Positions 1 through 21,808 of a stretch of DNA of 25,311 nt are shown here, in pieces; within the stretch, counting starts at the first letter, position 1, and each line of letters starts with the position of its first letter. Origin of the DNA: Planctomycetaceae bacterium (GTDB lineage Bacteria > Planctomycetota > Planctomycetia > Planctomycetales > Planctomycetaceae). The position numbers and the translations under genes were made by a program. The notes beneath the pieces are model-generated. The model did no database searches, had not been told where the DNA came from, and worked only from the letters and a program-made list of their open reading frames with translations. The stretch is taken from the NCBI GenBank assembly GCA_019636285.1, contig JAHBXV010000067.1, positions 1 to 25,311 of the forward strand, in the 5' to 3' direction.

Positions 1-1
1 G

Positions 2-80
2 AGGCTATAGGCTTGAGAAAGAATTGACGCGTCGCGTCTGATTGATTTCCTGCAGCCTCCAGTCTCCGGCCTACAGCCTG
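2..80 (+). repeat. Imperfect long inverted repeat GAGGCTATAGGCTTGAG ... CGGCCTACAGCCTG enclosing the perfect palindrome GACGCG-T-CGCGTC. First member of the GAGGCT..AGGCTTGAGG spacer-repeat family of the tRNA array.
   Basis: About 14 of 17 positions pair, including G-U pairs valid only in plus-strand RNA. Related copies at 255-300 and 485-580. Confidence 0.4.
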
Positions 81-84
81 ACAA

Positions 85-158
85 GACGCGGTACGCAATT
101 GGCAAAGCGGCGAAGCTCAAACCTTCGTGGTTTGTGGGTTCGACTCCCACTCGCGTCA
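85..158 (+). tRNA. tRNA-like gene, anticodon CAA (Leu codon UUG) but class I architecture with a short 6-nt variable region
   Basis: 7-bp acceptor stem GACGCGG/TCGCGTC (one G-U pair). Anticodon arm is CGAAG-CTCAAAC-CTTCG. T-arm is GTGGG-TTCGACT-CCCAC with a canonical T-loop. Discriminator is A and no CCA is encoded. Hand-folded. Confidence 0.5.
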
Positions 159-165
159 CTGCATT

Positions 166-251
166 GGGTCGTGTTCCCAACGGCGGCCTGTAAAGCCGTT
201 GTCTCAAAACAAGTGGGGTGGAGACGAGAGGTTCAATTCCTTCACGACCTA
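166..251 (+). tRNA. tRNA-like element, 86 nt, with a Tyr-like CUGUAAA loop (GTA) but aberrant D-arm spacing; possible pseudo-tRNA
   Basis: 7-bp acceptor GGGTCGT/ACGACCT. T-arm ends ..GG-TTCAATT-CC... The hairpin GCGGC-CTGTAAA-GCCGT lies about 9 nt too close to the acceptor stem. The variable region is about 27 nt. Confidence 0.3.
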
Positions 252-412
252 TTTGGAGAGGCTTGAGACTTGAGGCCGCAGGCTTGAGGAGGGAAATTCT
301 TCGCGTCTCAGTCTTTCTCTCCGGCCGGACACGACCAGTCGGGCTGGGTAGAAAGTCCAAAAGGGACAGCCAGAGAAGACTTCTGCTCGCCGCTGGTTGC
401 TGGCGGCTTCAT

Positions 413-482
413 GGCAGGCTGGGCAGGTGTCCGACCGGCTTTCATATGGCCGGCATGCCCGGATCGTTACCGGGGCCTGCTA
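413..482 (+). tRNA. Degenerate tRNA-like element, anticodon CAT (Met/Ile2-like); probable pseudogene
   Basis: Acceptor GGCAGGC/GCCTGCT pairs. Anticodon arm is CGGCT-TTCATAT-GGCCG. T-stem is CCCGG/CCGGG but the T-loop ATCGTTA is non-canonical. The D-arm is too short. Confidence 0.3.
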
Positions 483-484
483 TT

Positions 485-580
485 GCGGAGGCTTTAGACG
501 GGAGGCTGTAGGCCTGAGGAAGAAAGAGCTGCGAGATGCGTTCTTCCTCAAGGCTCCGGTCTCACGCCTCAAGCCTGAAC
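485..580 (+). repeat. Nested hairpin spacer element of the GAGGCTTTAGAC / AGGCCTGAGGAAGAA ... TTCTTCCTCAAGGCT / CCTCAAGCCTG family
   Basis: Two nested inverted repeats read directly. The motif GGCTTGAGG or its complement CCTCAAGCC recurs at 10-17, 259-267, 281-289 and 566-577. Confidence 0.4.
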
Positions 581-582
581 AC

Positions 583-653
583 GGGCGGCTCGTCCAATGG
601 GAAGACACCTGGTTTGCACCCAGGAAATCGGGGTTCGGCTCCCCGGCCGGTCC
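583..653 (+). tRNA. tRNA-Ala(TGC)-like, with an acceptor mismatch and a G58 T-loop; possibly a pseudogene
   Basis: Acceptor GGGCGGC/GCCGGTC has one G-G mismatch. Anticodon arm is CCTGG-TTTGCAC-CCAGG. T-arm is CGGGG-TTCGGCT-CCCCG. There is no G3-U70 pair. Confidence 0.4.
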
Positions 654-660
654 ACTTGAG

Positions 661-748
661 TGGTCGATGGTTGAGCGTTGATGGTTGAGAGACAGACACG
701 AAGACTTTTCTTCTTGCCATCAACCATCGACGCTCGACCATCGACCTG
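661..748 (+). repeat. About 27-bp imperfect palindrome GGTCGATGGTTGAGCGTTGATGG ... CCATCAACCATCGACGCTCGACCATCGACC. A long RNA hairpin between the Ala-like tRNA and tRNA-Ser.
   Basis: The arms are near-perfect reverse complements. Mismatches are T in the 5' arm opposite G in the 3' arm. These form U-G pairs in plus-strand RNA but A-C on the other strand, so the structure is used as plus-strand RNA. Confidence 0.5.
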
Positions 749-751
749 ACT

Positions 752-839
752 GGAAGGTAGCCGGATACGGTTGGCCGGGCCGCACTGCTAACGCGGCTCT
801 CCCGCAAGGGAGATGAGGGTTCGAATCCCTTGCTTTCCG
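752..839 (+). tRNA. tRNA-Ser(GCT), class II
   Basis: Acceptor GGAAGGT/GCTTTCC. D-stem CCGG/CCGG. Anticodon arm CCGCA-CTGCTAA-CGCGG. Long variable arm CTCCC-GCAA-GGGAG. T-arm GAGGG-TTCGAAT-CCCTT. Discriminator G. Confidence 0.7.
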
Positions 840-954
840 CTTATTCAGCGATCAGCCACCAGCGATCAGCAATCAGCAAAAAAGAACAAATCAGTCGGCA
901 TCCGCTCGGTTTGTCACACTGACTGCTGATTCCTGTTCGCTAATGGCGACCAAC

Positions 955-1027
955 GGCCTGATGGTGAAATGGATCATCACACCCGGCTTCTAACCGGGGG
1001 GTCCGGGTTCGAATCCTGGTCGGGCCA
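955..1027 (+). tRNA. tRNA-Arg(TCT)
   Basis: Acceptor GGCCTGA/TCGGGCC. D-stem GTGA/TCAC. Anticodon arm CCCGG-CTTCTAA-CCGGG. T-arm CCGGG-TTCGAAT-CCTGG. Discriminator A. Confidence 0.75.
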
Positions 1028-1029
1028 TT

Positions 1030-1135
1030 GAAGAAGTCGTAAGTCTGGAGATAAGAGTCCAGAGCCAGAGAAAGGCAGGAAAGAGCGAACTTCCAGTCTG
1101 GCTCTCGACTCTGGACTCTCGTCTCTCGACTTTCC
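1030..1135 (+). repeat. Structured spacer GAGTCCAGAGCCAGAG ... CAGTCTGGCTCTCGACTCTGGACTCTCGTCTCTCGAC with CTCTCGAC direct repeats
   Basis: Complementary segments of 8-10 bp and short direct repeats, read directly. Lies between tRNA-Arg(TCT) and tRNA-Ser(GGA). Confidence 0.35.
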
Positions 1136-1222
1136 GGAAGGGCCTCCCGATGGGTGCCGGGCGCCGGGTGGAAACCGGTTGGGGGCGCAAGCCCCTTGCG
1201 GGTTCGACTCCCGCTCCTTCCG
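1136..1222 (+). tRNA. tRNA-Ser(GGA), class II
   Basis: Acceptor GGAAGGG/TCCTTCC. Anticodon arm GCCGG-GTGGAAA-CCGGT. Long variable arm GGGGGC-GCAA-GCCCC. T-arm GCGGG-TTCGACT-CCCGC. Discriminator G. Confidence 0.7.
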
Positions 1223-1224
1223 CT

Positions 1225-1300
1225 GTGGCCGGATCCGGTGTTGGTGACCGGAAGCAGACTGTGACTCTGCCTGACGGCGGTTCGATTCCGCTCGGCCACC
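1225..1300 (+). tRNA. tRNA-His(GTG); the genomic -1 position is T, so G-1 is not encoded
   Basis: Perfect 7-bp acceptor GTGGCCG/CGGCCAC. Anticodon arm GCAGA-CTGTGAC-TCTGC. T-arm GGCGG-TTCGATT-CCGCT. Discriminator C. Starts 3 nt after the preceding tRNA. Confidence 0.7.
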
Positions 1301-1301
1301 T

Positions 1302-1565
1302 TCAGACTCGGCGGATGCAAAGGTCCCAAATTCGGAGCGCGATGGTACCGCATGTGTTGATCAGCGGAACGATGCTCAATGCGCCGATGAGCACTCCCAG
1401 AAAATACGCAAAGAGAATGAACATCCATCCCCCAAATACAAGCAACAAGGCAATGGCCATACCTCCTTCGCCGACGTTAGCCCCGAAGAGCGTCCGCTGA
1501 AAGTAGGCATGAACCATCAGGCCGCCAAGCACTCCGCCGGATATTCGCAGTAAGAAGACGAGCAT
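1302..1565 (-). CDS. Small hydrophobic membrane protein (87 aa, about 2 TM helices), hypothetical
   Basis: ATG-initiated ORF with hydrophobic segments and a G-rich stretch upstream of the ATG. Its stop abuts the 3' end of tRNA-His (convergent). Confidence 0.45.
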   Translation of the reverse strand: MLVFLLRISGGVLGGLMVHAYFQRTLFGANVGEGGMAIALLLVFGGWMFILFAYFLGVLIGALSIVPLINTCGTIALRIWDLCIRRV

Positions 1566-1651
1566 TTGTCGTCCACCCCCCTTTTCCGGGTAGGCGTCGA
1601 CGGCCTCGAAGTATCACACGGATTTCCGGTGTACCCGGAAGGAATTTGACA

Positions 1652-2245
1652 ATGACCTCGCTCCTGCATCGACCAGCACTCGTTCTGAACCGCAACTGGC
1701 AGCCGGTGGGTGTCGCCACGGTGGCCCGCTCGTTGACGCTGGTGGTCGCCGAACGGGCGAGGATCGTCGATCCCACCGACTTCCAACAGTACACGTGGGC
1801 CGATTGGGCCAGGCTGATGCCCGCCGTGGATGAGCCGTTCGTCCAGTCGGTAACGTTTCGGGTTCGCGTGCCGGAGGTGATCACGCTGACCGACTACGAC
1901 CGCGTTCCCACGAACTCGGTCGCCTTCAGTCGGCGGAACATCTTCAAGCGCGATCGCTATACCTGCCAGTTCTGCGGCGAGCAGCCAGGGAGCGAGGAGC
2001 TGACGATCGACCACGTGCTACCCCGCTCGCGCGGCGGCACCAGCACTTGGGAGAACTGCGTTCTGGCCTGCGTGGACTGCAACAAGCGCAAGGCAGACCG
2101 CACACCAGCCGAAGCCCACATGCCGCTACGGAAGGCACCAGTCCGACCAAAGTGGCGGCCGCTCTATGCCCGGCACGACGCGCGCATTGAAAGCTGGTCC
2201 AAGTTCGTCAGCGAGACGTACTGGAATGTCGAGTTGGATGAATGA
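1652..2245 (+). CDS. HNH endonuclease family protein
   Basis: C-terminal HNH motif ...CQFCGE...LTIDHVLPRSRGG...ENCVLACVDCNKRK. ATG at 1652 is preceded by GGAAGG. The ORF track starts at an in-frame TTG at 1646. Confidence 0.85.
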   Translation: MTSLLHRPALVLNRNWQPVGVATVARSLTLVVAERARIVDPTDFQQYTWADWARLMPAVDEPFVQSVTFRVRVPEVITLTDYDRVPTNSVAFSRRNIFKRDRYTCQFCGEQPGSEELTIDHVLPRSRGGTSTWENCVLACVDCNKRKADRTPAEAHMPLRKAPVRPKWRPLYARHDARIESWSKFVSETYWNVELDE

Positions 2246-2250
2246 CAATC

Positions 2251-2285
2251 GCCGCCGAGTCCTTTTCGGATGGCTCGGCGGCTTT
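2251..2285 (+). terminator. GC-rich hairpin (9-bp stem GCCGCCGAG/CTCGGCGGC) followed by TTT, immediately 3' of the HNH gene and 5' of tRNA-Trp. Possible weak intrinsic terminator or processing stem.
   Basis: Inverted repeat read directly. The U-tract is short. Confidence 0.35.
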
Positions 2286-2287
2286 AC

Positions 2288-2357
2288 ACGAGCGAGCTCC
2301 TGGGAGAGCGGGTGGTCTCCAAAGCCGCTGGATGGGGTTCAAATCCTCACGCTCGTG
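2288..2357 (+). tRNA. tRNA-Trp(CCA)
   Basis: Acceptor ACGAGCG/CGCTCGT with an A1-U72 pair. Anticodon arm GTGGT-CTCCAAA-GCCGC. T-arm TGGGG-TTCAAAT-CCTCA. D-arm slightly irregular. Confidence 0.6.
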
Positions 2358-2363
2358 CTGACT

Positions 2364-2437
2364 GCCGACGTGGCTCGACTGAGAAAGGCGTCCGTCTTGT
2401 AAGCGGAAGCATGCTGGTGCGAATCCAGTCGTCGGCC
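2364..2437 (+). tRNA. tRNA-Thr(TGT)
   Basis: Acceptor GCCGACG/CGTCGGC. Anticodon arm TCCGT-CTTGTAA-GCGGA. T-arm GCTGG-TGCGAAT-CCAGT. D-arm poorly formed. Confidence 0.55.
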
Positions 2438-2443
2438 CTGATT

Positions 2444-2515
2444 GTCCCGATGGTGTAGCGGATTGCATTGGACTCTCCGAAGGTCCAGGCCCTGGTTCAA
2501 TTCCAGGTCGGGATA
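2444..2515 (+). tRNA. tRNA-Arg(CCG)
   Basis: Acceptor GTCCCGA/TCGGGAT. D-stem GTGT/GCAT. Anticodon arm GGACT-CTCCGAA-GGTCC. Perfect T-arm CCTGG-TTCAATT-CCAGG. Confidence 0.7.
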
Positions 2516-2524
2516 TTGAGTGAT

Positions 2525-2595
2525 GCCCTGCGGGTGTGGAGGACGCATGACTGCCTTCGAAGCAGTCGGGCGAGGTTCGATTCCTCGGTGGGGTA
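2525..2595 (+). tRNA. tRNA-Arg(TCG)
   Basis: Acceptor GCCCTGC/GTGGGGT with three G-U pairs. D-stem GTGT/GCAT. Anticodon arm ACTGC-CTTCGAA-GCAGT. T-arm CGAGG-TTCGATT-CCTCG. Confidence 0.6.
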
Positions 2596-2602
2596 CTGAT
2601 TC

Positions 2603-2673
2603 GTCCTTGGAGTGTGGTGGATGCACGCGACTCTGCGAAGGTCGTAGACCAGGTTCGACTCCTGGCAGGGACA
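2603..2673 (+). tRNA. tRNA-Arg(GCG)
   Basis: Acceptor GTCCTTG/CAGGGAC. D-stem GTGT/GCAC. Anticodon arm CGACT-CTGCGAA-GGTCG. T-arm CCAGG-TTCGACT-CCTGG. Confidence 0.65.
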
Positions 2674-2684
2674 CTGATCTTGAC

Positions 2685-2756
2685 GACGCTGAAGTCACAC
2701 GGCGTGGCGGCGGCCTGCAAAGCCGTTTTGAGTGGGTTCGACTCCCACCAGCGTCT
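2685..2756 (+). tRNA. tRNA-Cys(GCA) with U73 discriminator
   Basis: Acceptor GACGCTG/CAGCGTC. Anticodon arm GCGGC-CTGCAAA-GCCGT. T-arm GTGGG-TTCGACT-CCCAC. Discriminator T is consistent with Cys identity. Confidence 0.7.
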
Positions 2757-2862
2757 CATTGAATGGAAGGTCGTTGATGTTGTCTGTCCAGCGGCATGCA
2801 GGTCACCCGGCAGGGTTTGGCTCTGCCTGTTCCGTGAATGGGATCTGACCAGGGAACATCGA

Positions 2863-2937
2863 CGTTGGTTAGCTCAATGGCAGAGCACCAGATTCTGGAT
2901 CTGGAAGTTGCGGGTTCGACTCCCGTACCAACACCCA
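2863..2937 (+). tRNA. tRNA-Gln(CTG), 3' CCA encoded (2935-2937)
   Basis: Acceptor CGTTGGT/ACCAACA with a C1-A72 mismatch. The TA-GCTC-AATGGCA-GAGC D-arm is canonical. Anticodon arm CCAGA-TTCTGGA-TCTGG. T-arm GCGGG-TTCGACT-CCCGT. Confidence 0.65.
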
Positions 2938-3414
2938 CGAGCCGGATCGTACCCGGCACCAGCCTGTTAAGCTGGCGACGCTGCATAGCGTCTCACAATG
3001 CCTGAAGGAGGCAGACGTCCGTTTTGATCGGCTGGAGCATGTGCTCGGGCACACCAACGCTTCACGAAAGTGGAACCAAGGTGTTGCTCGCAGACCATGT
3101 TCCAGCAGCATGCGGCGACGCCTTGTAGTGCGTGGATACCGCGCTCAGCCGGCAACGGCTGAAGGGAACGGAAGCGACGACGTTCACCGGACGGGACTCC
3201 CTCGGGAGTTCGGAAAGGGAACGTCGAAGCGGAAGGACCTGGACACCGTTGCCAGCGGGCGCTCAAGCGCACTCCGCGATTCGTCCATGTGATCGGCGAA
3301 CGCTCTGCCTTCGGACGGTGTCTCTTGAGGATTCATCGCGGTACTAATGCCGCGTTTTGCTTTCGCTCGGTGCGAAGGCTGTCAGGCCGGGGCGAGACTC
3401 CGGGGAGGTGAAGG

Positions 3415-4521
3415 ATGTTTCTATTCAAGAAGTACAAAATTCGCAGCTACGAAATGGGACTCTTGTTCCGGGATGGAGAATTCCGGGGCCTGGTCGAGGC
3501 TGGAACCCGCTGGTTTTTCGACCCGCTCGGCAAGGTCCGCGTGGATATCGCGTCCCAGCGCGATCCGTGGCTGGTTCATGAGAAGCTCGACCTGATCGTC
3601 AAGTCGGGTGCGCTCGCCGAGCGCGCTGTCGTCCTGGACCTGAAGGATCACGAGCGGGCACTCGTCTGGATCGAGAACCGGTTCAGCCATGTTCTGCCAG
3701 CCGGCTTGTATGCCTACTGGACGGGACAGAAGGATGTCCGGGTTGAAGTGGTCGATGCCCGCATCGTGCGGTTCGAACATGCCGAGTTGAAGGTGATCGC
3801 CCGGTCGCCGCTGGCGCAGCGCGTCCTGGATGTCTGCACGGTCAACCGTGACCGGGTAGGCGTTCTGTTCATCGACGGTCGCTACATCGAGACGCTGACT
3901 CCGGGCCTGTACGCCTTCTGGAAGGGACAGTCCGAAGCCAAGGTCGTGGAGATCGACCTGCGGGAGACGATGGTCGACGTTGGCGGTCAGGACATCATGA
4001 CGGCCGACAAGGTGACGCTGCGGCTGAACGCCGTCGTGACTTACAAGATTGTCGATGCCCGTAAGGCGGTCAGCCAGACGGATGACGTCCGGCAGGCGCT
4101 CTACCGCGACACGCAGCTCGTCCTGCGGAGCGTGGTGGGGGCCCGTGAACTCGATGCCTTCCTGACGGAAAAAGATGCCGTCGCGACAGAGATCGAGGAG
4201 AGCGTTCGTCGTCGGGCGGGTGAGCTGGGCCTGGAAATCGCTTCGGTTGGTATCCGGGATGTGATCCTGCCGGGCGATATGAAGGATCTGATGAACAAGG
4301 TCACGGAGGCTCGCAAGGCGGCCGAGGCGAACCTGATCTCGCGTCGCGAGGAAACGGCTGCCATGCGGTCGCAGGCCAACACGGCCAAACTGCTGGCGGA
4401 CAACCCGACTCTCATGCGGCTGCGGGAGCTCGAAGTCCTGGAAAAGATCGCCTCGAACGGCAAGCTCAACATCGTCCTCGGCGACAAGGGCTTGGCCGAC
4501 AAGGTGGTCAACCTGTTGTGA
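3415..4521 (+). CDS. SPFH/band-7 (stomatin/prohibitin-like) domain protein, cytoplasmic, with a triplicated N-terminal beta-hairpin motif
   Basis: 368-aa ORF with the strong RBS GGGGAGGTGAAGG before the ATG. The C-terminal half is a typical SPFH core followed by a coiled-coil. The N-terminal 200 aa carry three tandem copies of ..LF.DG.....L.PGLYAFW.GQ....V..VD.R.. No TM segment. Confidence 0.85.
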   Translation: MFLFKKYKIRSYEMGLLFRDGEFRGLVEAGTRWFFDPLGKVRVDIASQRDPWLVHEKLDLIVKSGALAERAVVLDLKDHERALVWIENRFSHVLPAGLYAYWTGQKDVRVEVVDARIVRFEHAELKVIARSPLAQRVLDVCTVNRDRVGVLFIDGRYIETLTPGLYAFWKGQSEAKVVEIDLRETMVDVGGQDIMTADKVTLRLNAVVTYKIVDARKAVSQTDDVRQALYRDTQLVLRSVVGARELDAFLTEKDAVATEIEESVRRRAGELGLEIASVGIRDVILPGDMKDLMNKVTEARKAAEANLISRREETAAMRSQANTAKLLADNPTLMRLRELEVLEKIASNGKLNIVLGDKGLADKVVNLL

Positions 4522-5521: not shown

Positions 5522-6448
5522 TCATTCCGACGTTAATTGCCACGGCCCGGATGGACGCCAGGTCAAGGCGAACTCCTGGCCCGTAGCGAGTGCTGCTGCC
5601 AGTGGTCCCAAGAACTGCCCGAGGGCCTCGACAACGACGTGGAATTCGGCGGGGGCGATCTCCAGTCGCGACTTTCGCACGAATCCCTTCCACTGCGTCT
5701 GTTTGATCGGATCGTTCGCGAAGGCGGCGGTCAGCGCGATTGGGACCGCACTCATGGCGGTCTTGCGATTCTCAAATGTTCTCGTGACTGCCTCAGACAA
5801 CAAACGGCCGTCGAATTCAAACTGCCGCGACAAGAGCCATAGATCGAAGAAGTCCTTCAGACGGCTGTTGAGTTGCCCGAGCTTGACCATTGCCTCGAAC
5901 TTCTCGGCGACCACGGTCTCCCTGGGGTACGCGCGGAGTCGGGGCTGGGCATGGTCCAGGATCGTGGGGTAGTCGGCGAACGCGGCTTCGGGCACGACCG
6001 TGTCACCGAACCCGATGTCAATCTGCATGGGAACACGGGCATTTTCCAGGGACGCCTGAAAGGTGACTCGCACACCCGAGTAGTCCGCGTCTTCCTTGAT
6101 TTGTTGCCCTGCCACGGTCTCGACGGCAAACACCAATCCATCCGGCTCGACCGCGCGCTGACAGACATCGCGAAATACCGGGACGAGGGCATCCACGCTG
6201 TTGTTGAGCCGGCCCAGCAGGTCAATATCGCGTGTCGGACGGGAAGACAGCGCACCCCACAGGTTGAACAGGAGCGCTCCTTTGAGGATGAACCGCTCGG
6301 CATGTGGCGACTGCGACAGACGGTACAGGAATCTCTCCATCGCGAAGTATTGGAGCACTTCCTGAAAGGGACGCCCCGAGGCTACGGCCGAATTCATCAG
6401 CCGCTGGCGAACTGAGGCTGCGACGTTTTTGAGAGGCCGCTCGGTCAC
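5522..6448 (-). CDS. abiEii: AbiEii/AbiGii-family nucleotidyltransferase toxin (type IV toxin-antitoxin / abortive-infection)
   Basis: N-terminal signature ASVRQRLMNSAVASGRPFQEVLQYFAMERFLYRLSQS...ILKGALLF...RPTRDIDLL. The GTG start at 6448 overlaps the upstream stop as GTGA. An alternative ATG lies at 6397. The ORF-track extension to 7150 is an Arg/Pro-rich artefact. Confidence 0.8.
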   Translation of the reverse strand: MTERPLKNVAASVRQRLMNSAVASGRPFQEVLQYFAMERFLYRLSQSPHAERFILKGALLFNLWGALSSRPTRDIDLLGRLNNSVDALVPVFRDVCQRAVEPDGLVFAVETVAGQQIKEDADYSGVRVTFQASLENARVPMQIDIGFGDTVVPEAAFADYPTILDHAQPRLRAYPRETVVAEKFEAMVKLGQLNSRLKDFFDLWLLSRQFEFDGRLLSEAVTRTFENRKTAMSAVPIALTAAFANDPIKQTQWKGFVRKSRLEIAPAEFHVVVEALGQFLGPLAAALATGQEFALTWRPSGPWQLTSE

Positions 6449-7071
6449 AGCACGGCCTCCAGATAAGGCTGGATGACTCGCTTCACCCGACAGATTCCCG
6501 CGTAATGAAGGAGCGACTCGACGTTGACGCGGCCTTGGCGGCGGTATGCCTTGAGCGCCTCCAGCACGGTGTCGAGGCCGATCCGATTCCGGTGTTTGAA
6601 GCAGTCCGCCAGCGTTTTTTCGCGGCTGTAGATACGAACGGGGACTCCGTCGACCGTGTGTGTTTCGATCCCTTCCGAATAGGCGGGGCCGCTGAACCAG
6701 AAATGCCGCACCGGCGGATAGGACAGCCGAGGCGGTTCTGCCCCTCGGGGAATGGCGACGCAGATTTCGTGGGGGATTTGGGTGGTGAGTTCGTGCCAGG
6801 CGAGCGCCGAGATCAGGCAAAGCACCCCGTTGGGAATTCTGAGAGCGACGGTGACCAGGTCTGGATTGCCAAGCGACGGAGCGTCCGCGAGTCGGTACAG
6901 CCCCCGACTGAGCAGTTCGATCCGACCCGAATCGCGGAGAGCGTACAGAGTCCGGGGATGGATACCGGCCTCCAGAGCATCGCGCGTGCGGAGCATCCCC
7001 CCGAGGGCGCGGAAATGGTCCAGCGCCGCCGAGATCGGTCGGGGTTCTTCGGGAGGGTGTTCGACGCTCAT
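6445..7071 (-). CDS. abiEi: AbiEi-family antitoxin / transcriptional regulator (winged-HTH N-domain plus C-terminal domain)
   Basis: 208-aa ORF. LRTRDALEAGIHPRTLYALRDSGRIELLSRGLYRL is a winged HTH. Positioned immediately upstream of, and overlapping, the nucleotidyltransferase toxin. Confidence 0.85.
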   Translation of the reverse strand: MSVEHPPEEPRPISAALDHFRALGGMLRTRDALEAGIHPRTLYALRDSGRIELLSRGLYRLADAPSLGNPDLVTVALRIPNGVLCLISALAWHELTTQIPHEICVAIPRGAEPPRLSYPPVRHFWFSGPAYSEGIETHTVDGVPVRIYSREKTLADCFKHRNRIGLDTVLEALKAYRRQGRVNVESLLHYAGICRVKRVIQPYLEAVL

Positions 7072-7078
7072 GTGGATA

Positions 7079-7084
7079 AATATA
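7079..7084 (-). promoter_or_regulatory. Candidate -10 hexamer TATATT located 7 nt upstream of the abiEi ATG, implying a leaderless or near-leaderless transcript. A weak -35 CTGGCA lies 18 nt upstream, next to the direct repeat ACGCC-ACGCC.
   Basis: Read from the reverse complement of 7072-7130. No SD sequence lies between the hexamer and the ATG. Confidence 0.3.
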
Positions 7085-7569
7085 CCAGCACGGCGTGGCG
7101 TGTGCCAGTTTTTCTATCCAGGCGAGGCAGTTTTGGTAGAGGGCCAACACGGATGGGGGCTCGGCTTCCGAATGCCACGATGGACGGTGGCGGCAAGGCC
7201 ATGCGGCAAAACCGCTACAGCCGGACCGGAGATCGTGAGGGCCAACTCCCCGTAGGGCAGATTGGGATTCTCAGGGGCGGCCTCCGGGGTGCAAAAATGA
7301 GATCGACCCTCATTTACCCGCGAATTGCCGAGTCTATCACGATGAAGAACCTGTTTCAGCCCCTGTCGCTGCCGATCCTGGCGAAGCCGAGCGCCCAAGA
7401 GGTTTGTTGAAATCGCCCGTCGAGGCCTATCGCTCCGCCACGACTAACGATGTTCAGAAACGTCTCGTGGACATCCTTGATCCTCCGGAGTTACACCGGA
7501 TACAGCCCGGTGAGTGTGCGATAGGACCGAGTGAAGCTGCTTACAATCGCTCAGCAAACAACGCTTCAC

Positions 7570-10500
7570 TTACTGTTTGTGGATTGTCGTGGCAGCTTCT
7601 TCGACCATGACCGGGGATGGATTCAGTGTTGGATCGCTGGTTGGTTGCGATCCGGCCAACGGCGTCGGCATACCGGCTGATATCGGATTTGAAGGCGGTT
7701 GAATTCCGTCGGAGTGGGGCTGCTTATGTTCGTAAACCTTGCGGCCAAACTTGAAGAACAATGCAGGCGTGACGACTTGGTCGAGGATCGTCGACGTGAG
7801 CATTCCGCCGAAGACAACCAACGCCAGCGGATACAGAATCTCCTTGCCAGTCTGGCCTGCTCCGAACAGCAGTGGCAAGAGGCCGATGAAACTGGTCATC
7901 GCGGTCATCATCACGGGGGCGAGGCGTTCCAGGCTGCCACGCACGATCATCTGTTCGGAGAAGGCTTCACCTTCATGCTGCATCAGGTGAATGTAGTGTG
8001 TGATCATCATGATGCCGTTGCGACTCACGACGCCGATGAGCGTGATGAAGCCAACCCAGTGCGCGACGGACAGACTGGTGGCACTGACCCACACACGGGG
8101 CCAGTCCCACCAGGGGGCGGCTTGCAATGCGGACCACTCGGGGCGATTGACGATCAACAGCGTCAGCACCGAACCGAATGCAGCGAGAGGGATGTTGACT
8201 AGGACTTGTACAGCGGCCCTCCACGAATCGAGCGCTTTGCAGAGCAGCAGGAAGACCCCAAGGATGCTGAGCGTGCCGAGTATTGCCAAGCGGCGGTTGG
8301 CTTGCTGCTGGGCCTCAAACTGTCCGCTGAATTCGACGTAGTAGCTGCCGGGAAGTTGTTGGAGACTCTCTTCAACAGGGGCGACAGCCGCCTTGATATC
8401 CCTCACCACACTGGCGAGGTCACGCCCCTGCACGTTGCAGAAGACAACGATCCGACGTTGGACATTCTCGCGGTTGAGCGTGTTCGGGCCGGTGGTGTCC
8501 AGCACTTCCGCGACTTGTCCCAGCGCAACGCGGCGGCCGGAGGGAGTCTCCAGAATCGTCTCATTGATGGTTTCGGGATCGCTGCGCGAGGCTTCGTCGT
8601 ACCAGACGACGAGTCCAAAATAGCGGTCTTCGTCTAGCACTTGCGAGACGACTTGCCCCCGGTAGGCCGTCTCCAACAGATCCGCGACATCGCCCGGAGC
8701 GAGTCCGTAGCGGGCGGCCTCGTCACGCTTGACTCGCAGGCGAATCTGCGAAATCTCGATCTGCGGCTCGATCTGCAAATCGACGATGCCAGGGATCGTC
8801 TGCATTCGCTCCTGCATGTTGCTGGCGGCGGTCCGCAACTCGCGCAGGTCTTGCCCGAAAATCTTCACGGCGATCTGGGCGCGGATGCCCGACATCATGT
8901 GGTCCAGTCGGTGCGAGATCGGCTGACCGATATTGACCGCCGCGCCGGGGATGTTTGAGATGCGGTCGCGCACGTCGGCGATCACCTCGGCGCGCGGACG
9001 CCCCACGGAATCGAAACCCCACAAATGGACGATCGGGATCAGCCGCAGGGCCGCATAACCCCAGCCAGATTTCGGCGGATGGTGTTCGGCGAGTCGTACA
9101 TCGATCTCGGACGAATTGACTCCCTCGGCGTGTTCGTCCAGTTCCGCCCGACCTGTTCGGCGAGAGACCGACAACACTTCGGGAACATCGAGGATCAACC
9201 CCTCGGCGCGTGCGGCGATGCGCTGGCTTTCGTCGAGGCTCGTCCCCGGTTCCATACGCAGGCTGATTGTCAACGTCCCTTCATTGAATGGCGGCAGAAA
9301 CTCGCCGCCCATCCACAGGATGCTGGCACAGGAGAGCGTAACCAAAACGGCGACACCACTCAGAACCAGCGTTGCGTGACGTAACGTGAACCTCAATACC
9401 ATCTCATCCAGTCGCTTGAGCCAGCGAAGGACCAGCGGGTCGGCTCCTTCGTCCAGCAACTTGGCTTTCGACAGCAGTACCGAACCGAATGCGGGAGTGA
9501 AGGTCAGTGACACGACTAGCGAACAGAGCAGAGCGGTGATGTAGGCTACGCCCAGCGGAGCGAACATACGGCCTTCCAACCCGGCCATCGAAAACAACGG
9601 GAACATGACCAGAATGACAATCAGTGTGGCATAGACAATCGAATTGCGCACTTCGCACGAGGCGTCGTAGATCACGTCCAAAGGTGAACGCTGCTGGCTA
9701 ACTGGCAGGTGCCGATTTTCCTTCAAACGGCGATAGATGTTCTCGATGTCGACGATGGAATCGTCCACCAGATCGCCGATCGCCACCGCGATGCCTCCCA
9801 GCGTCATCGTGTTGATCGTGATGCCAAACCAGTGGAACACCAGAATCGTGAGCAGGATCGACAGTGGCATCGACGTGAGCGAACTGACGCTCGTGCGGAA
9901 ATTGCCCATCATCAGGAACAGGATGACGACCACCCACAAGGCCCCGTCACGCACCGCTTCGGTGACGTTTTCCACGGCGGCTGCGATGAAGTCGGCCTGC
10001 TTGAAGATGCGACGCTCGATGACGACATCGGGCGGCAATTCTTTCTGCAACGATTCCAGAACGTCGTCGATCATGCGGTCCAAAGCCAGCGTGTCGGCGT
10101 TGGGTTGTTTCTGCACCGTGATGATGACGGCCGGGCCACCGCTGACTTTTGTTGTCGCATGTACCTCTTCGGGCTGGTCGCCGCCGTCATGCCCATGGGC
10201 TGCCGGTACCGGAGTGTGCGGATGGGGCGACTGCTCGTCGTGACTCCCGTTCGAGTGTCCGTCCTCGCCGTGACTTTCGTCGTGTGCAGAGGAGTCTGGA
10301 TGTTCGTGCGGCAGTGATTCGCGAACGGCAGCGTTCACATCGGGTTCGAGCTTCACCCACGCGCTGCCATCTCCCCGTTTGACCGGCCCGCCGAAGCGGA
10401 CTTCGGCCACGTCCTTGATCCGGACCGGCATCGGGTCACGCCACAGAACGGGCGTGTTTTCAATCTCCTCCAGCGTGAGGCTCTGCCCATTGATGCGTAA

Positions 10501-11211
10501 CAGAGACTCTTTCGGTGAGCGGACTACGATGCCACCACCGGCGATCACGTTCGCCTTCTTCGCGGCCGTGACAAGTTGTTCCAGCGTCACGTTCTGAGCG
10601 GCCAACCGCGCTGGGGACGTGACGATCTGATACTGTTTGAAGATCCCGCCCATGACCGTGACCTGCGACACGCCACCCACTGCCAACAGCCGGTTCCGCA
10701 GCGTGAACTCTCCCAGCGTGCGTAGCTCCATCGCCTTGGCGTTTTGTTCTTCGGGGGTCTTCAACTCCGCGCTGGAGCGCAGGCCGAGCAACATGATCTC
10801 GCCCATGATCGACGAGATCGGTGCCATCACCGGATTCGTTCCTGCGGGCAGTCGCTCGCGGGCGAGTTGCAACTTCTCGGACACAATTTGCCGGTCGCGA
10901 AAGATGTCGGTGCCCCAATCGAACTCGACCCACACGATCGACAGTCCGATTCCCGATGCCGACCGGACTCGTTTCACGTCGGTTGCGCCGTTCAGCAGGA
11001 ACTCAAGAGGTCGGGTGACCAGCACCTCGACCTCTTCGGGGGCCAGACCAGTGGCTTCGGTCATGATTGTGACCGTCGGGCGGTTCAAATCCGGAAACAC
11101 ATCGACTGGCATCTCGCGCAGCTGGATGGCTCCCAATACCATGACGACGAGCGCCCCGATCAACACCAGGGCTCGGTTTTTCAGCGAGAAGGAAATGATT
11201 CCATTCAGCAT
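7570..11211 (-). CDS. Heavy-metal efflux RND transporter, CusA/CzcA (HME) family, with a His-rich periplasmic insertion
   Basis: Starts MLNGIISFSLKNRALVLIGALVVMVLG (ATG 11211). 12-TM RND architecture with the HME-type TM4 segment VAIGDLVDDSIVDIENI. The roughly 50-aa His/Asp/Glu-rich segment HEHPDSSAHDESHGEDGHSNGSHDEQSPHPHTPVPAAHGHDGG maps to 10162-10311. Confidence 0.9.
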   Translation of the reverse strand: MLNGIISFSLKNRALVLIGALVVMVLGAIQLREMPVDVFPDLNRPTVTIMTEATGLAPEEVEVLVTRPLEFLLNGATDVKRVRSASGIGLSIVWVEFDWGTDIFRDRQIVSEKLQLARERLPAGTNPVMAPISSIMGEIMLLGLRSSAELKTPEEQNAKAMELRTLGEFTLRNRLLAVGGVSQVTVMGGIFKQYQIVTSPARLAAQNVTLEQLVTAAKKANVIAGGGIVVRSPKESLLRINGQSLTLEEIENTPVLWRDPMPVRIKDVAEVRFGGPVKRGDGSAWVKLEPDVNAAVRESLPHEHPDSSAHDESHGEDGHSNGSHDEQSPHPHTPVPAAHGHDGGDQPEEVHATTKVSGGPAVIITVQKQPNADTLALDRMIDDVLESLQKELPPDVVIERRIFKQADFIAAAVENVTEAVRDGALWVVVILFLMMGNFRTSVSSLTSMPLSILLTILVFHWFGITINTMTLGGIAVAIGDLVDDSIVDIENIYRRLKENRHLPVSQQRSPLDVIYDASCEVRNSIVYATLIVILVMFPLFSMAGLEGRMFAPLGVAYITALLCSLVVSLTFTPAFGSVLLSKAKLLDEGADPLVLRWLKRLDEMVLRFTLRHATLVLSGVAVLVTLSCASILWMGGEFLPPFNEGTLTISLRMEPGTSLDESQRIAARAEGLILDVPEVLSVSRRTGRAELDEHAEGVNSSEIDVRLAEHHPPKSGWGYAALRLIPIVHLWGFDSVGRPRAEVIADVRDRISNIPGAAVNIGQPISHRLDHMMSGIRAQIAVKIFGQDLRELRTAASNMQERMQTIPGIVDLQIEPQIEISQIRLRVKRDEAARYGLAPGDVADLLETAYRGQVVSQVLDEDRYFGLVVWYDEASRSDPETINETILETPSGRRVALGQVAEVLDTTGPNTLNRENVQRRIVVFCNVQGRDLASVVRDIKAAVAPVEESLQQLPGSYYVEFSGQFEAQQQANRRLAILGTLSILGVFLLLCKALDSWRAAVQVLVNIPLAAFGSVLTLLIVNRPEWSALQAAPWWDWPRVWVSATSLSVAHWVGFITLIGVVSRNGIMMITHYIHLMQHEGEAFSEQMIVRGSLERLAPVMMTAMTSFIGLLPLLFGAGQTGKEILYPLALVVFGGMLTSTILDQVVTPALFFKFGRKVYEHKQPHSDGIQPPSNPISAGMPTPLAGSQPTSDPTLNPSPVMVEEAATTIHKQ

Positions 11212-11227
11212 GACGAACTTTCTGGCA

Positions 11228-13420: not shown

Positions 13421-13467
13421 AATCGAGCTTCCTGTCAGCGCTGCGTTCCTATTGTCATGTGGAAATG

Positions 13468-20337: not shown

Positions 20338-20600
20338 ATGTACGACCGGGATACGAAGTTTACGAATGCGTTTGATGCGATCTTCGACCAGGAGGGAGCG
20401 GAAGGAGAACAGACGGCATTTCGGTCGCCGAGCACCAACGCTTTCGTTGAGCGGTTCATCCAGACATTGCAGCAGGAAGTCCTGGATCACTTCGTCGTTT
20501 TCGGTGAGCAGCACATGGACCACTTGGTGTCGGAAACCGTCGAGCACTACCACGATGAGAGGCCACTCCAGTCATTGGGGAATGAGCCACCGGTGAATCG
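20338..20600 (+). pseudogene. Truncated remnant of a DDE transposase/integrase (C-terminal about 85 aa of an rve-type core: [10 protein letters not shown]...[22 protein letters not shown]...[16 protein letters not shown])
   Basis: The reading frame has no upstream continuation, so the N-terminal catalytic region is absent. Opposite orientation to the surrounding operon. The tandem repeat CGGTTAAGCG-CGGTTAAGCG lies at 20664-20683. Confidence 0.55.
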
Positions 20601-20819
20601 CCAGACGACGGAAACCCCAGACAGCGATACCGACGAGACCAAGCTGCGGATCGTCCGCCGCGAGCGGTTAAGCGCGGTTAAGCGGGTGGCTCAATCGCTA
20701 TTCCTTGAGAGCGGCATGAGTTCTCCGTCGTACGTTTATTGGCAGTGGGAAGCCATGGTGCGGAACGCAGCTGTGCATCCAGGTACTGGTCTGCTTCCTC
20801 GGATGATCCGAGATGGTCG

Positions 20820-21161
20820 TCAGATGGCTTTCGGGCCAAACGCCAGCCAGAGTCCAATGGCCATACTTGCCAACAGCAGTCCCAACCCGATTGCCGACCA
20901 GAAGTCGAGATTGAGTCGCTCGGCGAACGCGAGCGGCACAAAGAAGGGCAGGCCGAGGGGAACGAGGATCAGCGTTTCTCGCGCCATGGTCGAGAGACTT
21001 TTCAGGTCGTGATCGCGAAACCAGGCAGCTCCGAAGGCGAGAATGCTGACCAGCGGTAGACTCAGCAGCAACGCCCCGGCCCTGGGCATCCGGCGGGAGA
21101 GTTCAGAGACGGCCAGGATGATGCACCCCGGCACGACGACGCGGAGCACGAATGACACCAT
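20820..21161 (-). CDS. Small integral membrane protein (about 113 aa, 3-4 TM), hypothetical
   Basis: Hydrophobic ORF. ATG 21161 has GAGGA about 13 nt upstream. An alternative upstream ATG lies at 21206. Confidence 0.5.
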
Positions 21162-21269
21162 CGCTGGAACATCCTCTGTGGAATCGCCACTTGGCAGACG
21201 AAGCATTCGCCCCTCTCAGCTCGCGCCGACGAGGGGCCAACGCCGTAAACCGTTTTGCTTGAGAATCGG

Positions 21270-21776: not shown

Positions 21777-21808
21777 CTCATTCTCCTTCACTCGGAAACA
21801 CAGATCAT

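Follow-up and report, generated by a model that had tools for sequence, protein, structure and literature searches.

Bacteria normally read the CGN arginine codons with an ICG tRNA plus a CCG tRNA, and tRNA-Arg with a GCG anticodon is uncommon among them (PMC3711424), as the sequence-only reading of this locus had rightly pointed out. Why, then, does the 25,311-nt stretch of Planctomycetaceae DNA analysed here (the window) carry three adjacent genes for tRNA-Arg(CCG), tRNA-Arg(UCG) and tRNA-Arg(GCG), and no ACG gene that ARAGORN can find? The answer that we consider probable is that the trio are functional-looking isoacceptors forming a conserved block of a horizontally mobile tRNA array that is specific to Planctomycetota and is also carried by at least one phage.

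To establish the genes themselves we relied on ARAGORN and on the Rfam tRNA model RF00005 (gathering score 29). All lie on the + strand: tRNA-Arg(CCG) at 2444-2516 (ARAGORN start 2443; 49.1 bits in Rfam at 2444-2515), tRNA-Arg(UCG) at 2525-2596 (36.1 bits at 2525-2595, in an E-value search only), tRNA-Arg(GCG) at 2603-2674 (46.8 bits at 2603-2673) and, further upstream, a tRNA-Arg(UCU) of the array type, with a GTGA D-stem, at 955-1027 (63.2 bits). ARAGORN scores of the window's Arg tRNAs are 107.6-123. The four genes first recognised by eye are thereby upheld as real, their coordinates having been right to within one base, and ARAGORN agrees on the anticodons CCG, TCG and GCG. The trio have in common a GTGT D-stem, a 4-nt variable loop and CTNCGAA anticodon loops; the D-stem and the loops had been correctly picked out as visible in the sequence, and the D-arm of all three is unusual. 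We then compared each gene with its orthologues in related array loci (numbered with an L below). The CCG gene shows 97% identity and compensatory changes in 7 of 21 pairs; the UCG gene is 100% identical to those of L004, L007, L010, L014 and L025, with 9/21 pairs compensatory; and the GCG gene shows 99% identity, again with 9/21 compensatory pairs, and an anticodon that is invariant in 32/32 orthologues. For the window's tRNA-Arg(UCU) the corresponding identity is 78-89%. Standard pairs fill 99.8% of the pair cells across orthologues of the GCG tRNA and 99.0% across those of the UCG tRNA. None of 500 shuffles matched the pairing and covariation values of these two, and displacing their structures by 1-3 columns brought pairing down to 30-49%. 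All four helices of the Arg tRNAs are backed by covariation, and the cloverleaves of the trio are far beyond chance.

The trio also look like arginine acceptors. Identity elements for arginyl-tRNA synthetase in E. coli and T. thermophilus are A20 in the D-loop, C35, G36 or U36, and A or G at position 73. G18-G19-A20, C35-G36 and A73 are present in all three genes and kept in their orthologues, and the canonical Arg anticodon loop of E. coli is the same as the trio loop CUNCGAA except at position 34. The genes differ in the tertiary core: tRNA-Arg(CCG) has U8 and A14, whereas the canonical core (the U8-A14 pair and A21) is absent from the UCG and GCG tRNAs, which have G/A at position 8, G/A at 14 and U/C at 21, a core that is atypical for cellular tRNAs. 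The acceptor stem of the UCG tRNA contains three G-U pairs.

The trio sits in a run of 14 ARAGORN-called tRNA genes at 85-2937, all on the + strand, accompanied by a degenerate Tyr-like gene. With 14 called genes in 2.9 kb the density is 4.9 per kb, and the window start truncates the array. The run opens with tRNA-Leu(CAA) at 85-159, 75 nt long and with a short, class-I-like variable loop (Rfam 49.7 bits). The Tyr(GTA)-like gene at 167-249 (+ strand) follows; it has a weak Rfam match (27 bits, E 0.02) and no ARAGORN call, and it fills the Tyr slot of intact arrays while being divergent from their Tyr genes. ARAGORN further calls tRNA-Met(CAT) at 412-483, tRNA-Ala(TGC) at 583-653 (Rfam 41.2 bits), tRNA-Ser(GCT) at 752-840 (97% identity to the L004, L005 and L016 orthologues), tRNA-Ser(GGA) at 1137-1223 (94% to the L004 orthologue), tRNA-His(GTG) at 1225-1300 (nearest His type in L176, L058 and L072), tRNA-Trp(CCA) at 2288-2358 (99% to orthologues), tRNA-Thr(TGT) at 2364-2438 (100% to L004, L005 and L007) and, just after the trio, tRNA-Cys(GCA) at 2685-2757 (Rfam 45.5 bits). 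The window holds the 3' part of an array, eroded by the loss of at least seven tRNAs and with hairpin repeats in its spacers, and of mosaic ancestry. Given this erosion, the array may be decaying in this genome.

The spacers between the tRNA genes are heptad-repeat hairpins, given here on the + strand. That at 1-81, cut by the window start, folds at -27.8 kcal/mol (z -2.0), and its repeat GAGGCTNNAGGCTTGAG is also found in the spacers at 258-288 and 488-518. As judged by the fold and by the gene order of L004 and L025, two hairpin spacers at 258-400 replace the Glu(CTC) and Leu(CAG) genes of intact arrays. The spacer at 489-576 (36-nt arms, 78% complementary; -45.8 kcal/mol, z -3.4) replaces Leu(GAG)-Val(GAC)-Thr(GGT), and the one at 661-746 (27-nt arms, 93% complementary; -56.9 kcal/mol, z -10.5), which has relatives in L016 and L010, replaces Ala(GGC). 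GATCAGC heptad repeats make up the hairpin at 848-947 (-38.1 kcal/mol, z -5.2), and the hairpin at 1034-1132 (-49.6 kcal/mol, z -4.2) belongs to a palindromic repeat family of many related arrays, with many copies in both orientations in L010, L016, L018, L003, L068 and L063. Finally, the non-coding spacer that leads from the Cys gene to the terminal tRNA-like element (2758-2862) is conserved, at 74-82% identity in L004, L007, L008, L014, L034 and L058, and contains the conserved motifs CCAGCGGC and ATGGGTTCTGAC.

To place this array among its relatives, we gathered array loci through their HNH protein and added metagenome loci. A common order, Ser-Arg(UCU)-Ser-Arg(CCU)-His-[HNH]-Trp-Thr-Arg(CCG)-Arg(UCG)-Arg(GCG)-Cys-tRNA-like-SPFH, is repeated across dozens of contigs from Planctomycetota, and one phage genome of 94 kb has it too. 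Orthologous arrays comprise 34-43 genes within about 5 kb (43 in L025), in non-periodic order and on a single strand; for a tRNA array unit, Tran et al. 2016 ask for 20 or more tRNA genes and a density of 2 or more per kb. Eroded and minimal versions exist as well. Among cultured Planctomycetes, Schlesneria sp. T3-172 and Planctopirus hydrillae carry relatives. Array-type Arg genes in 209 loci comprise 81 with gcg, 60 with tcg, 53 with ccg, 58 with tct, 26 with cct and 10 with acg anticodons, so that ACG accounts for 10 of about 290 genes and the GCG slot is filled by GCG in 81 cases vs 3 with ACG. In about 10 arrays an ACG anticodon sits on the body of a UCG or GCG tRNA, so that A34 is not avoided without exception. 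Immediately after N73, C is found at +1 in 75% and U at +2 in 84% of 1060 distinct array tRNAs, and CCA is encoded in 0.7% of them.

Two protein genes accompany the tRNAs. The HNH endonuclease gene (1652-2245, + strand; Pfam HNH/HNH_5, E 1e-14) lies inside the array, always between His and Trp, and its 197-aa product is 70-93% identical to those in Planctomycetota arrays; an exact-sequence look-up of this protein returned no record, and searches of PDB and NCBIfam with it gave generic HNH-domain matches only. The SPFH/Band 7 gene (3415-4521, + strand; Pfam Band_7, E 1e-27) is the conserved downstream partner of the array, found with 70-87% identity at the equivalent place in 16 loci, phage L209 among them, and neither the SPFH protein nor the small ORFs had a match in PADLOC. 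Synteny stops after the SPFH gene. The 22 kb downstream of the window array hold SPFH, AbiEii, RND/Cus and P-type ATPase genes and no phage structural or packaging genes; the AbiEii-family toxin gene, 2.6 kb downstream, is a genuine hit and has a counterpart near the L085 array, but it is not syntenic with the arrays. Upstream of the arrays, conservation is confined to about 300 nt of non-coding DNA, with neither an integrase nor any other gene in common, and no sigma-70-like promoter was found in 1-3500 of the window. The phage copy is a full array in a 94-kb IMG/VR contig (L088/L209), where a terminase large subunit (phrog_675, E 4e-89) and a phage topoisomerase-like gene (phrog_6247, E 1e-99) are encoded in the L209 flanks. 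It was found only via the terminal tRNA pattern and the HNH protein. A blastn search of 1-3400 against plasmids and phages gave no matches beyond the HNH core and the Leu(CAA) gene, indicating that those collections hold no close array, and viral contigs scanned for the exact pattern of the Arg(GCG) core yielded nothing.

A tRNA-like element with a highly variable anticodon loop and a conserved body closes the array; in the window it lies at 2863-2937 (+ strand; Rfam 62.1 bits) and reads as 'Gln(CTG)'. The D arm, anticodon stem and T arm are strongly conserved and position 33 is often C, while the 14 homologues obtained from the HNH-based search bear different anticodons and 33 different triplets occur among 108 distinct copies. 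Covariation was not seen in the acceptor stem, whose paired positions are distributed just as in the shuffled null; in most copies the element is therefore no conventional chargeable tRNA. When we looked within 1.5 kb for a partner complementary to the loop, there was no enrichment over shuffled loops (40 complements of loop 6-mers observed, 43.4 +/- 5.7 expected). Ongoing rapid switching of the loop was also considered and rejected, since copies less than 2% diverged have identical loops.

The anticodons of the arrays follow a simple scheme. Across arrays the wobble base is G in 567, U in 382, C in 379 and A in 13 genes, so that G, U and C make up 99%. Of the possible non-A34 anticodons, 44/45 recur, CCC being the sole sense exception; a single array has up to 41 distinct anticodons, and the largest cover 18-20 amino acids. 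Ile(tat) occurs 16 times. The array encodes a nearly full decoding set, with G34 anticodons in nearly every codon box, and hence the unusual Arg(GCG) is found in it. By standard wobble rules, tRNA-Arg(GCG) would read CGC and CGU, tRNA-Arg(UCG) CGA and possibly CGG, tRNA-Arg(CCG) CGG, and tRNA-Arg(UCU) AGA plus, by wobble, AGG. The earlier statement that the set covers Arg codons holds good in this respect, but its count of five of the six was too low, as wobble gives all six. CGN makes up 93% of the Arg codons in the window's genes, and CGY 49%. GCG is thus the Arg case of an array-wide non-A34 scheme, for which A-to-I editing by TadA should be unneeded; the Ile(UAU) of intact arrays would similarly replace the TilS-dependent Ile(CAU).

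Several known systems are similar in part. The trn array on plasmid delta of Anabaena PCC 7120 (PMC8421152) likewise consists of dozens of packed same-strand tRNA genes in non-periodic order, is supernumerary to the host tRNAs, patchy and horizontally spread, contains short class-I-like tRNA-Leu genes of 75-78 nt, has frequent pseudogenes and insertions, and is linked to an HNH gene homologous to ours (33.5% identity, E 2e-21). Scored on the L-array criteria of Santamaria-Gomez et al. 2021, the Planctomycete arrays are non-periodic, same-strand and supernumerary, patchy in distribution and horizontally transferred, and HNH-linked. Its further criteria for an L-array are silence in standard growth, induction by translational stress and use of the tRNAs in translation. 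HNH is conserved at L-operons, and the Anabaena array is induced under translational stress (PMC8421152); in the few earlier cases that this source mentions, array tRNAs were poorly transcribed. The Anabaena array has 24 ARAGORN-called genes with a sparing anticodon set, the Planctomycete arrays up to 43; it uses Arg(ACG) plus Arg(UCU), where they have Arg(GCG), (UCG), (CCG), (UCU) and (CCU), often Ile(UAU), and G34/U34/C34 in nearly every box. The Anabaena HNH gene is upstream of the array rather than inside it, regulation there involves TrcR repeats, and, unlike that array, the Planctomycete ones end in a tRNA-like element and an SPFH gene. The tRNA array units of Mycobacterium (Morgado and Vicente 2018, PMC5966550; Tran et al. 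2016, PMC4758250) resemble ours in their high density, in their presence in chromosomes, plasmids and phages, and in having HNH as the commonest associated and most widespread gene (PMC5966550). The window's tRNA-Leu(CAA) is 87.7% identical to a tRNA-Leu of Mycobacterium phage Wildcat. They differ in host phylum and gene order, Wildcat uses Arg(ACG), and the Planctomycete arrays showed no tmRNA.

As regards decoding, the likeness is to the Mollicutes (Yokobori et al. 2013, PMC3711424): those without tadA read CGN with Arg(GCG) plus Arg(UCG) instead of ICG, and Mycoplasma mobile, which has no tilS, uses Ile(UAU) in place of the TilS-dependent Ile(CAU). In Mollicutes, however, a reduced genome without tadA or tilS depends on this system alone for its housekeeping decoding, while here the set is accessory and mobile, and CCG is kept. 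Finally, the tRNA cluster of phage T4 also has a free-standing homing-type endonuclease gene among phage tRNA genes, SegB, which promotes inheritance of the T4 tRNA region (PMC2330249); SegB belongs to the GIY-YIG and not the HNH family, and the T4 cluster has 8 tRNAs.

Taken as a mobile array, the full element consists of a conserved leader of about 300 nt, then about 40 same-strand tRNA genes with the embedded HNH gene, and a 3' end made up of Trp-Thr-Arg(CCG)-Arg(UCG)-Arg(GCG)-Cys, the terminal tRNA-like element and the SPFH gene. A promoter lying before the window start probably drives it as a single operon, and processing may proceed by an endonucleolytic 3' cut at the conserved N73-C-U trailer followed by CCA addition. 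By analogy, the array would be a self-sufficient reserve tRNA supply, sustaining translation when the host's own tRNA pool falls short, is under stress or is cut by tRNA-targeting nucleases, as in phage infection. From the cyanobacterial, mycobacterial and phage systems we infer a back-up, takeover or anti-defence role for this supply. The HNH endonuclease, going by its predicted activity, would aid persistence and spread of the array by homing-type gene conversion.

Other explanations of the trio have to be weighed against this one. The sequence-only reading proposed local duplication and looked for an arginine oddity of a metal-resistance island; put in full, one Arg gene would have been recently triplicated in the island, anticodon mutations then yielding an island-specific set. 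The genes are indeed adjacent and alike in D-stem, variable loop and anticodon loops, they are slightly closer to each other (0.56-0.64 identity) than to the UCU and CCU tRNAs (0.50-0.57), and anticodons do switch on a constant body, from CCG to CCT and UCG to ACG in L076 and from GCG to ACG in L124, L153 and L199. We nevertheless regard such a recent event as hardly credible. Within-class identity of array Arg tRNAs is 0.78-0.86 and between-class identity 0.56-0.64, and the trio members share 56-64% identity among themselves but 97-100% with their own orthologues, which stand in the same order in many contigs and in the phage. With paralogues about 40% different and orthologues this close, any duplication must be ancient and predate the spread of the array; related arrays do not lack the trio. 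The metal genes are not conserved beside the arrays, synteny ending past SPFH, and the supposed island feature is a block of a mobile array of about 40 genes. It is also very unlikely that the trio are simply the lineage's ordinary housekeeping Arg genes, with CGN read by GCG, UCG and CCG from a normal tRNA operon. The array is widespread in the phylum and covers up to all 20 amino acids, and no Arg(ACG) of the host's own was seen in the DNA examined; yet canonical host-type Arg(UCU), Arg(UCG) and Arg(CCG), with the standard AGCTC D-arm, are found outside arrays in L049, L054 and L059. Moreover, the number of tRNA genes beside homologous HNH genes varies from 0 to 43 among close relatives, some MAGs hold two or three arrays, a phage carries one, and in surveys arrays of this kind count as supernumerary and gained by horizontal transfer (PMC8421152, PMC4758250).

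Could the trio be pseudogenes in decay, left over from an old insertion and without function in this genome today? Low scores had been named as a possible sign of this, and the Rfam scores of 36-49 bits are low to moderate, positions 8 and 14 are non-canonical, the window array lacks at least seven tRNAs, its Tyr-like gene is degenerate and its spacers contain hairpin repeats, and arrays are eroded in many loci. The trio is nonetheless the best-preserved part: compensatory changes keep its helices at 99-99.8% pairing, which shows selection on structure, the anticodon and Arg identity positions are invariant and the 3' trailer is conserved. In addition, no Arg gene is retained more often than Arg(GCG), which persists even in arrays reduced to His-HNH-Trp-Arg(GCG), and we consider decay of the trio improbable. 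We think it similarly unlikely that the array tRNAs act mainly outside decoding, as decoys or replacements directed against anticodon nucleases of the host or as a source of regulatory fragments, with the Arg trio present because Arg tRNAs are a nuclease target. For phage tRNAs, a role against defences that target tRNAs has been proposed and sometimes shown, Arg-specific colicin D being among these defences (PMC10264068); two further reports set phage tRNAs against such defences (PMC11555353, PMC11464382), and mycobacterial arrays are described as putative anti-defence systems in another (PMC12803027). The array is carried by a phage, and AbiEii-family genes lie near two arrays, in the window and in L085. 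On the other hand, the AbiEii gene is not conserved with the array, which spans all amino acids and not chosen targets, and the CUNCGAA loops, canonical except at position 34, give no sign of nuclease-evading loop mutations. A nuclease-related role overlaps with the explanation that we favour rather than excluding it. A bolder version is rather doubtful at present: the array would be an autonomous phage translation-takeover or anti-defence kit, a near-complete A34-free anticodon set (Arg GCG and Ile UAU included) with which newly made tRNAs could read every codon independently of the host's TadA and TilS, and its terminal element would be a fast-evolving decoy or specificity element against anticodon-directed nucleases rather than a decaying gene.

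Long accessory tRNA arrays were already known, their purpose is poorly understood, and surveys have up to now done no more than list them for Planctomycetes. Seen as part of a mobile array, the Arg(GCG) tRNA is no quirk of a metal-resistance island, and an apparent anomaly is removed. The heptad-repeat hairpins and the terminal tRNA-like element may have a part in RNA processing or recombination. This is a large family, with syntenic copies numbering in the dozens and another on a phage, and its design is unusually explicit: G34, U34 and C34 in nearly every box, Arg(GCG), (UCG) and (CCG) standing in for ICG, and Ile(UAU) for the lysidine tRNA. With a design this explicit, the independence of a mobile tRNA set from the anticodon-editing enzymes of its host becomes a testable idea.

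ARAGORN called 14 tRNA genes in the window, all on the forward strand and within 85–2937: Leu(caa), Met, Ala(tgc), Ser(gct), Arg(tct) (955–1027), Ser(gga) and His, followed by the gene for a 197-aa HNH endonuclease (1652–2245; Pfam HNH, E = 1e-14) and then by Trp, Thr(tgt), Arg(ccg) (2443–2516), Arg(tcg) (2525–2596), Arg(gcg) (2603–2674), Cys and, at the end, a gene read as Gln(ctg). The Rfam tRNA model, whose gathering score is 29, gave 49.1, 36.1, 46.8 and 63.2 bits for Arg(ccg), (tcg), (gcg) and (tct), and together with the ARAGORN calls this shows that the coordinates and anticodons assigned in the sequence-only reading are correct. A fifteenth gene, a degenerate Tyr(GTA)-like one at 167–249 that ARAGORN missed, combines a truncated D arm with an unusual, long variable arm; it diverges from the Tyr genes found in related arrays and is a probable pseudogene. 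The window starts inside the cluster, which is therefore cut on its 5' side. Bacterial tRNA-Leu normally carries a long variable loop; the tRNA-Leu(CAA) at 85–159, 75 nt in length, has a short one and shares 87.7% identity with a tRNA-Leu from Mycobacterium phage Wildcat. Short, class-I-like genes account for four of the five Leu genes of the array, a trait also seen in the Anabaena array, and Leu(taa), (tag) and (gag) are equally short in related arrays and in the Anabaena trn operon.

The HNH protein has more than 5000 relatives, the best of them 70–93% identical, and those that bear a name come nearly all from Planctomycetota. Scanning 80 genomic loci retrieved through this protein for tRNAs revealed a conserved, syntenic long array: Phe-Glu-Pro-Pro-Ile-Lys-(Ile tat)-Lys-Thr-Gly-Pro-Asn-Ser-Gly-Asn-Gln-Gln-Ser-Ala-Val-Leu-Leu-Asp-Leu(caa)-Tyr-Glu-Leu-Met-(Met)-Leu-Val-Thr-Ala-Ala-Ser(gct)-Arg(tct)-Ser(gga)-Arg(cct)-His-[HNH]-Trp-Thr(tgt)-Arg(ccg)-Arg(tcg)-Arg(gcg)-Cys. 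As many as 43 genes are packed into about 5 kb in the largest example (locus L025), some MAGs hold two or three arrays, and many loci are eroded, down to His-HNH-Trp-Arg(gcg) or to HNH alone. Downstream of Cys follows a module of a conserved spacer of ~100 nt, a tRNA-like element and an SPFH/Band 7 gene; the latter (368 aa, 3415–4521 in the window) is 70–87% identical in 16 loci, is the constant downstream partner of the array, also in a phage genome, and gave no PADLOC match. A terminator-like hairpin lies just upstream of it at 3337–3354. On the other side, the sequence shared 5' of the first array tRNA amounts to only about 300 nt of non-coding DNA, and no integrase is shared among these upstream flanks.

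Genes of the related locus L004 with no counterpart in the window copy are Glu(ctc), Leu(cag), Leu(gag), Val(gac), Thr(ggt), Ala(ggc) and Arg(cct). From Trp to Cys, the window tRNAs are 93–100% identical to those of L004 and of a second relative, L007, a lineage that the window HNH gene matches too; for His, Ala(tgc) and Arg(tct), the nearer lineages are those of four other loci (L058, L072, L176 and L188). The array is thus of mosaic ancestry (85–1300 versus 1652–4521), which fits recombination between arrays. The gap between His and HNH (1301–1651) measures ~350 nt in the window versus ~20–100 nt in intact related arrays; it bears an 87-aa ORF on the reverse strand (1302–1565) with no homologue in any related locus, and is probably an insertion. 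Spacers of about 75–130 nt between the tRNA genes form long, near-perfect hairpins at five or six positions (1–81, 258–400, 489–576, 661–746, 848–947 and 1034–1132), with arms made of runs of heptad-like repeats such as GGATGAA, GATCAGC and GAGTCGA/GAGCCAG and with stabilities down to -56.9 kcal/mol (z = -10.5). Related arrays show the same architecture, partly with the same repeat families, in gaps of 75–130 nt and in both orientations, often at the site of a missing tRNA gene; the remaining 22 kb of the window contain no such hairpin.

How the three adjacent Arg genes came to lie side by side was addressed with a joint alignment of 105 Arg genes. All three combine a GTGT D-stem with a variable loop of 4 nt and CUNCGAA loops, features that fit a common origin; the D-stem and the anticodon loops had been read as the mark of a local duplication. 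The alignment does not bear this out: the CCG, UCG and GCG genes of the window share 97%, 100% and 99% identity with the orthologues of L004, L007 and L025, whereas the three classes are only 0.56–0.64 identical to one another, against 0.78–0.86 within a class. Any duplication is thus older than the spread of the array family, and the trio forms an ancient and conserved part of a long Planctomycete tRNA array associated with phages. In an extended set of 209 loci, array-type Arg genes numbered 81 for gcg, 60 for tcg, 53 for ccg, 58 for tct, 26 for cct and 10 for acg. The ACG cases, 11 sequences when listed individually, result from single-base switches of the anticodon: eight have a UCG-type body and three a GCG-type one. 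One locus (L076) has a CCG-type body with a CCT anticodon. Switches on a constant body are seen in L076 (10872–10944 and 11025–11098), L124 (4351–4426), L153 and L199. Host-type Arg tRNAs with a standard AGCTC D-arm are present in the flanks of L049 (tct), L054 (tcg) and L059 (ccg), outside the arrays, and the array Arg genes therefore represent a distinct accessory lineage.

The alternative that these genes are low-scoring pseudogenes finds some footing in their irregularities: the U8-A14 pair is absent from the UCG and GCG tRNAs, three G-U pairs occur in the UCG acceptor stem, and the Rfam scores of the trio are modest, all of which count against full normality. It is contradicted by the way the helices have been kept. 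Among 32 GCG orthologues, 99.8% of pair cells are standard and 9 of 21 pairs have changed on both sides, values reached by none of 500 shuffles, and slid structures drop to 30–49% pairing; the anticodon is invariant. The 19 UCG-type genes have 99.0% standard pair cells and again 9 of 21 pairs with changes on both sides, and compensatory change is found in 7 of 21 pairs of the 14 CCG-type genes. Conserved in the trio are G18-G19-A20, C35, G36 and A73, which are the positions known to determine ArgRS identity in E. coli and T. thermophilus. Among 1060 distinct array tRNAs, C directly follows the discriminator in 75% and U stands at the next position in 84%, while CCA is encoded in only 0.7%; this pattern suggests a uniform 3' processing signal that would be followed by CCA addition. 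Examples of such flanks in the window are 2597–2600 and 2675–2678 (ACTGA).

The GCG anticodon is likewise part of a wider scheme. In arrays of at least 10 genes the wobble base is G in 567 cases, U in 382, C in 379 and A in 13; 44 anticodons recur, that is, all non-A34 sense anticodons except CCC, with up to 41 distinct ones in a single array. The array design thus avoids A34 throughout, and since the same G/U/C triple is carried for Ala, Pro, Thr, Val, Ser and Leu, Arg(GCG)/(UCG)/(CCG) is not a peculiarity of Arg. Ile(UAU) is rare in bacteria, where AUA is normally read by a lysidine-modified CAU tRNA; it was found 16 times in these arrays and stands between two Lys genes in many intact ones (L017 6819–6891, L025 2026–2097, L209 7277–7350 and others). 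Most bacteria use a TadA-made tRNA-Arg(ICG) for CGU, CGC and CGA and a CCG tRNA for CGG; Mollicutes that have lost tadA use GCG plus UCG, and Mycoplasma mobile, which has lost tilS, uses Ile(UAU) (PMC3711424). The Planctomycete arrays share both features with those Mollicutes, and we infer that they constitute a decoding set independent of the host's two anticodon-editing enzymes. Unlike them, the Anabaena trn operon and phage Wildcat use Arg(ACG), showing that the editing-free scheme is not common to all long arrays. Arg codons in the window's genes are dominated by CGN (CGU 65, CGC 121, CGA 74, CGG 97, AGA 10, AGG 16).

The last element, read as Gln(ctg) at 2863–2937, always lies between the ~100-nt spacer and the SPFH gene (homologues: L004 3136–3212, L008 8262–8338, L034 5017–5093, L209 11242–11314); its D arm is canonical, in contrast to those of the other array tRNAs. 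In 14 homologues found independently of the element's sequence, the D arm, anticodon stem and T arm show about 90–100% majority identity, and the anticodon differs nearly every time. In a metagenome scan, the 108 distinct copies recovered showed 33 different triplets, among them CTA and TTA, which would read stop codons; position 33 is C in about 42% of the copies. The loop is close to random: positions 33–36 have an entropy of 1.5–1.8 bits, near the flank level. Copies with less than 2% divergence have identical loops, and at 5–10% divergence the loops differ by about 34%. The upper four acceptor pairs pair no better than shuffled controls, so that the upper stem is not maintained, and a search nearby for a complementary partner of the variable loop found none. 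The non-coding spacer between Cys and the element (2758–2862) is 74–82% conserved in at least 6 related loci, with the invariant motifs CCAGCGGC and ATGGGTTCTGAC; a common fold is weakly supported, and Rfam gave no match to it.

Further downstream, the window encodes an AbiEii-family nucleotidyltransferase toxin on the reverse strand (542 aa, 5522–7150; ~237-aa N-terminal extension), 2.6 kb from the array. Members of this family (MenT) act by modifying the acceptor ends of tRNAs. In L085, a further AbiEii gene (12936–13514) separates the array from SPFH. As a rule, the gene shows no synteny with arrays. The regions 7570–16092 and 20338–25246, with a CusA-like RND pump, a CusB-like adaptor, a second RND pump, a P-type ATPase with YHS/HMBD metal-binding domains and an rve_3 integrase fragment (20338–21012), are an ordinary metal-efflux island with a transposase remnant. 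As the AbiEii, RND/CusB and P-type ATPase genes are not conserved next to arrays, the island is a neighbour and not part of the element, and the link once drawn between the trio and metal resistance falls away.

A vehicle for the array is found among viruses. A 94-kb IMG/VR contig, UViG_3300007072_000340 (L088/L209), carries a full array of 36 genes with HNH, Arg trio, terminal tRNA-like element and SPFH, flanked by a terminase large subunit (phrog_675, E = 4e-89; Pfam GpA_ATPase) and a phage topoisomerase-like protein (phrog_6247, E = 1e-99). A second large viral contig (L213; IMGVR_UViG_3300025930_000007, 266 kb) has Arg cct/ccg/gcg/tcg and HNH genes interspersed at 7004–8145; its Arg(GCG) shares the GTGT-type D arm and body of the array type but has an encoded CCA, and this kind of body therefore appears to represent a tRNA lineage of phages. 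The window HNH is also homologous to the one adjoining the Anabaena PCC 7120 trn operon on plasmid delta (33.5% identity, E = 2e-21) and to those on array-bearing plasmids of Acaryochloris, Tolypothrix, Acidiphilium, Rhodococcus and Tsukamurella. Such elements have been defined as tRNA array units or L-arrays, with Planctomycetes among the phyla that carry them (PMC4758250; PMC8421152), and their commonest companion is reported to be an HNH gene (PMC8421152; PMC5966550). The Anabaena array is described as induced by translational stress, its tRNAs aiding survival (PMC8421152), and phage tRNAs have been proposed or shown to counter tRNA-targeting defences (PMC10264068). The kind of element is thus already known, and the Planctomycete array is a new representative of it. 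By analogy with these systems, it would serve as a reserve or takeover tRNA supply, and its maintenance and spread may be helped by the HNH endonuclease.
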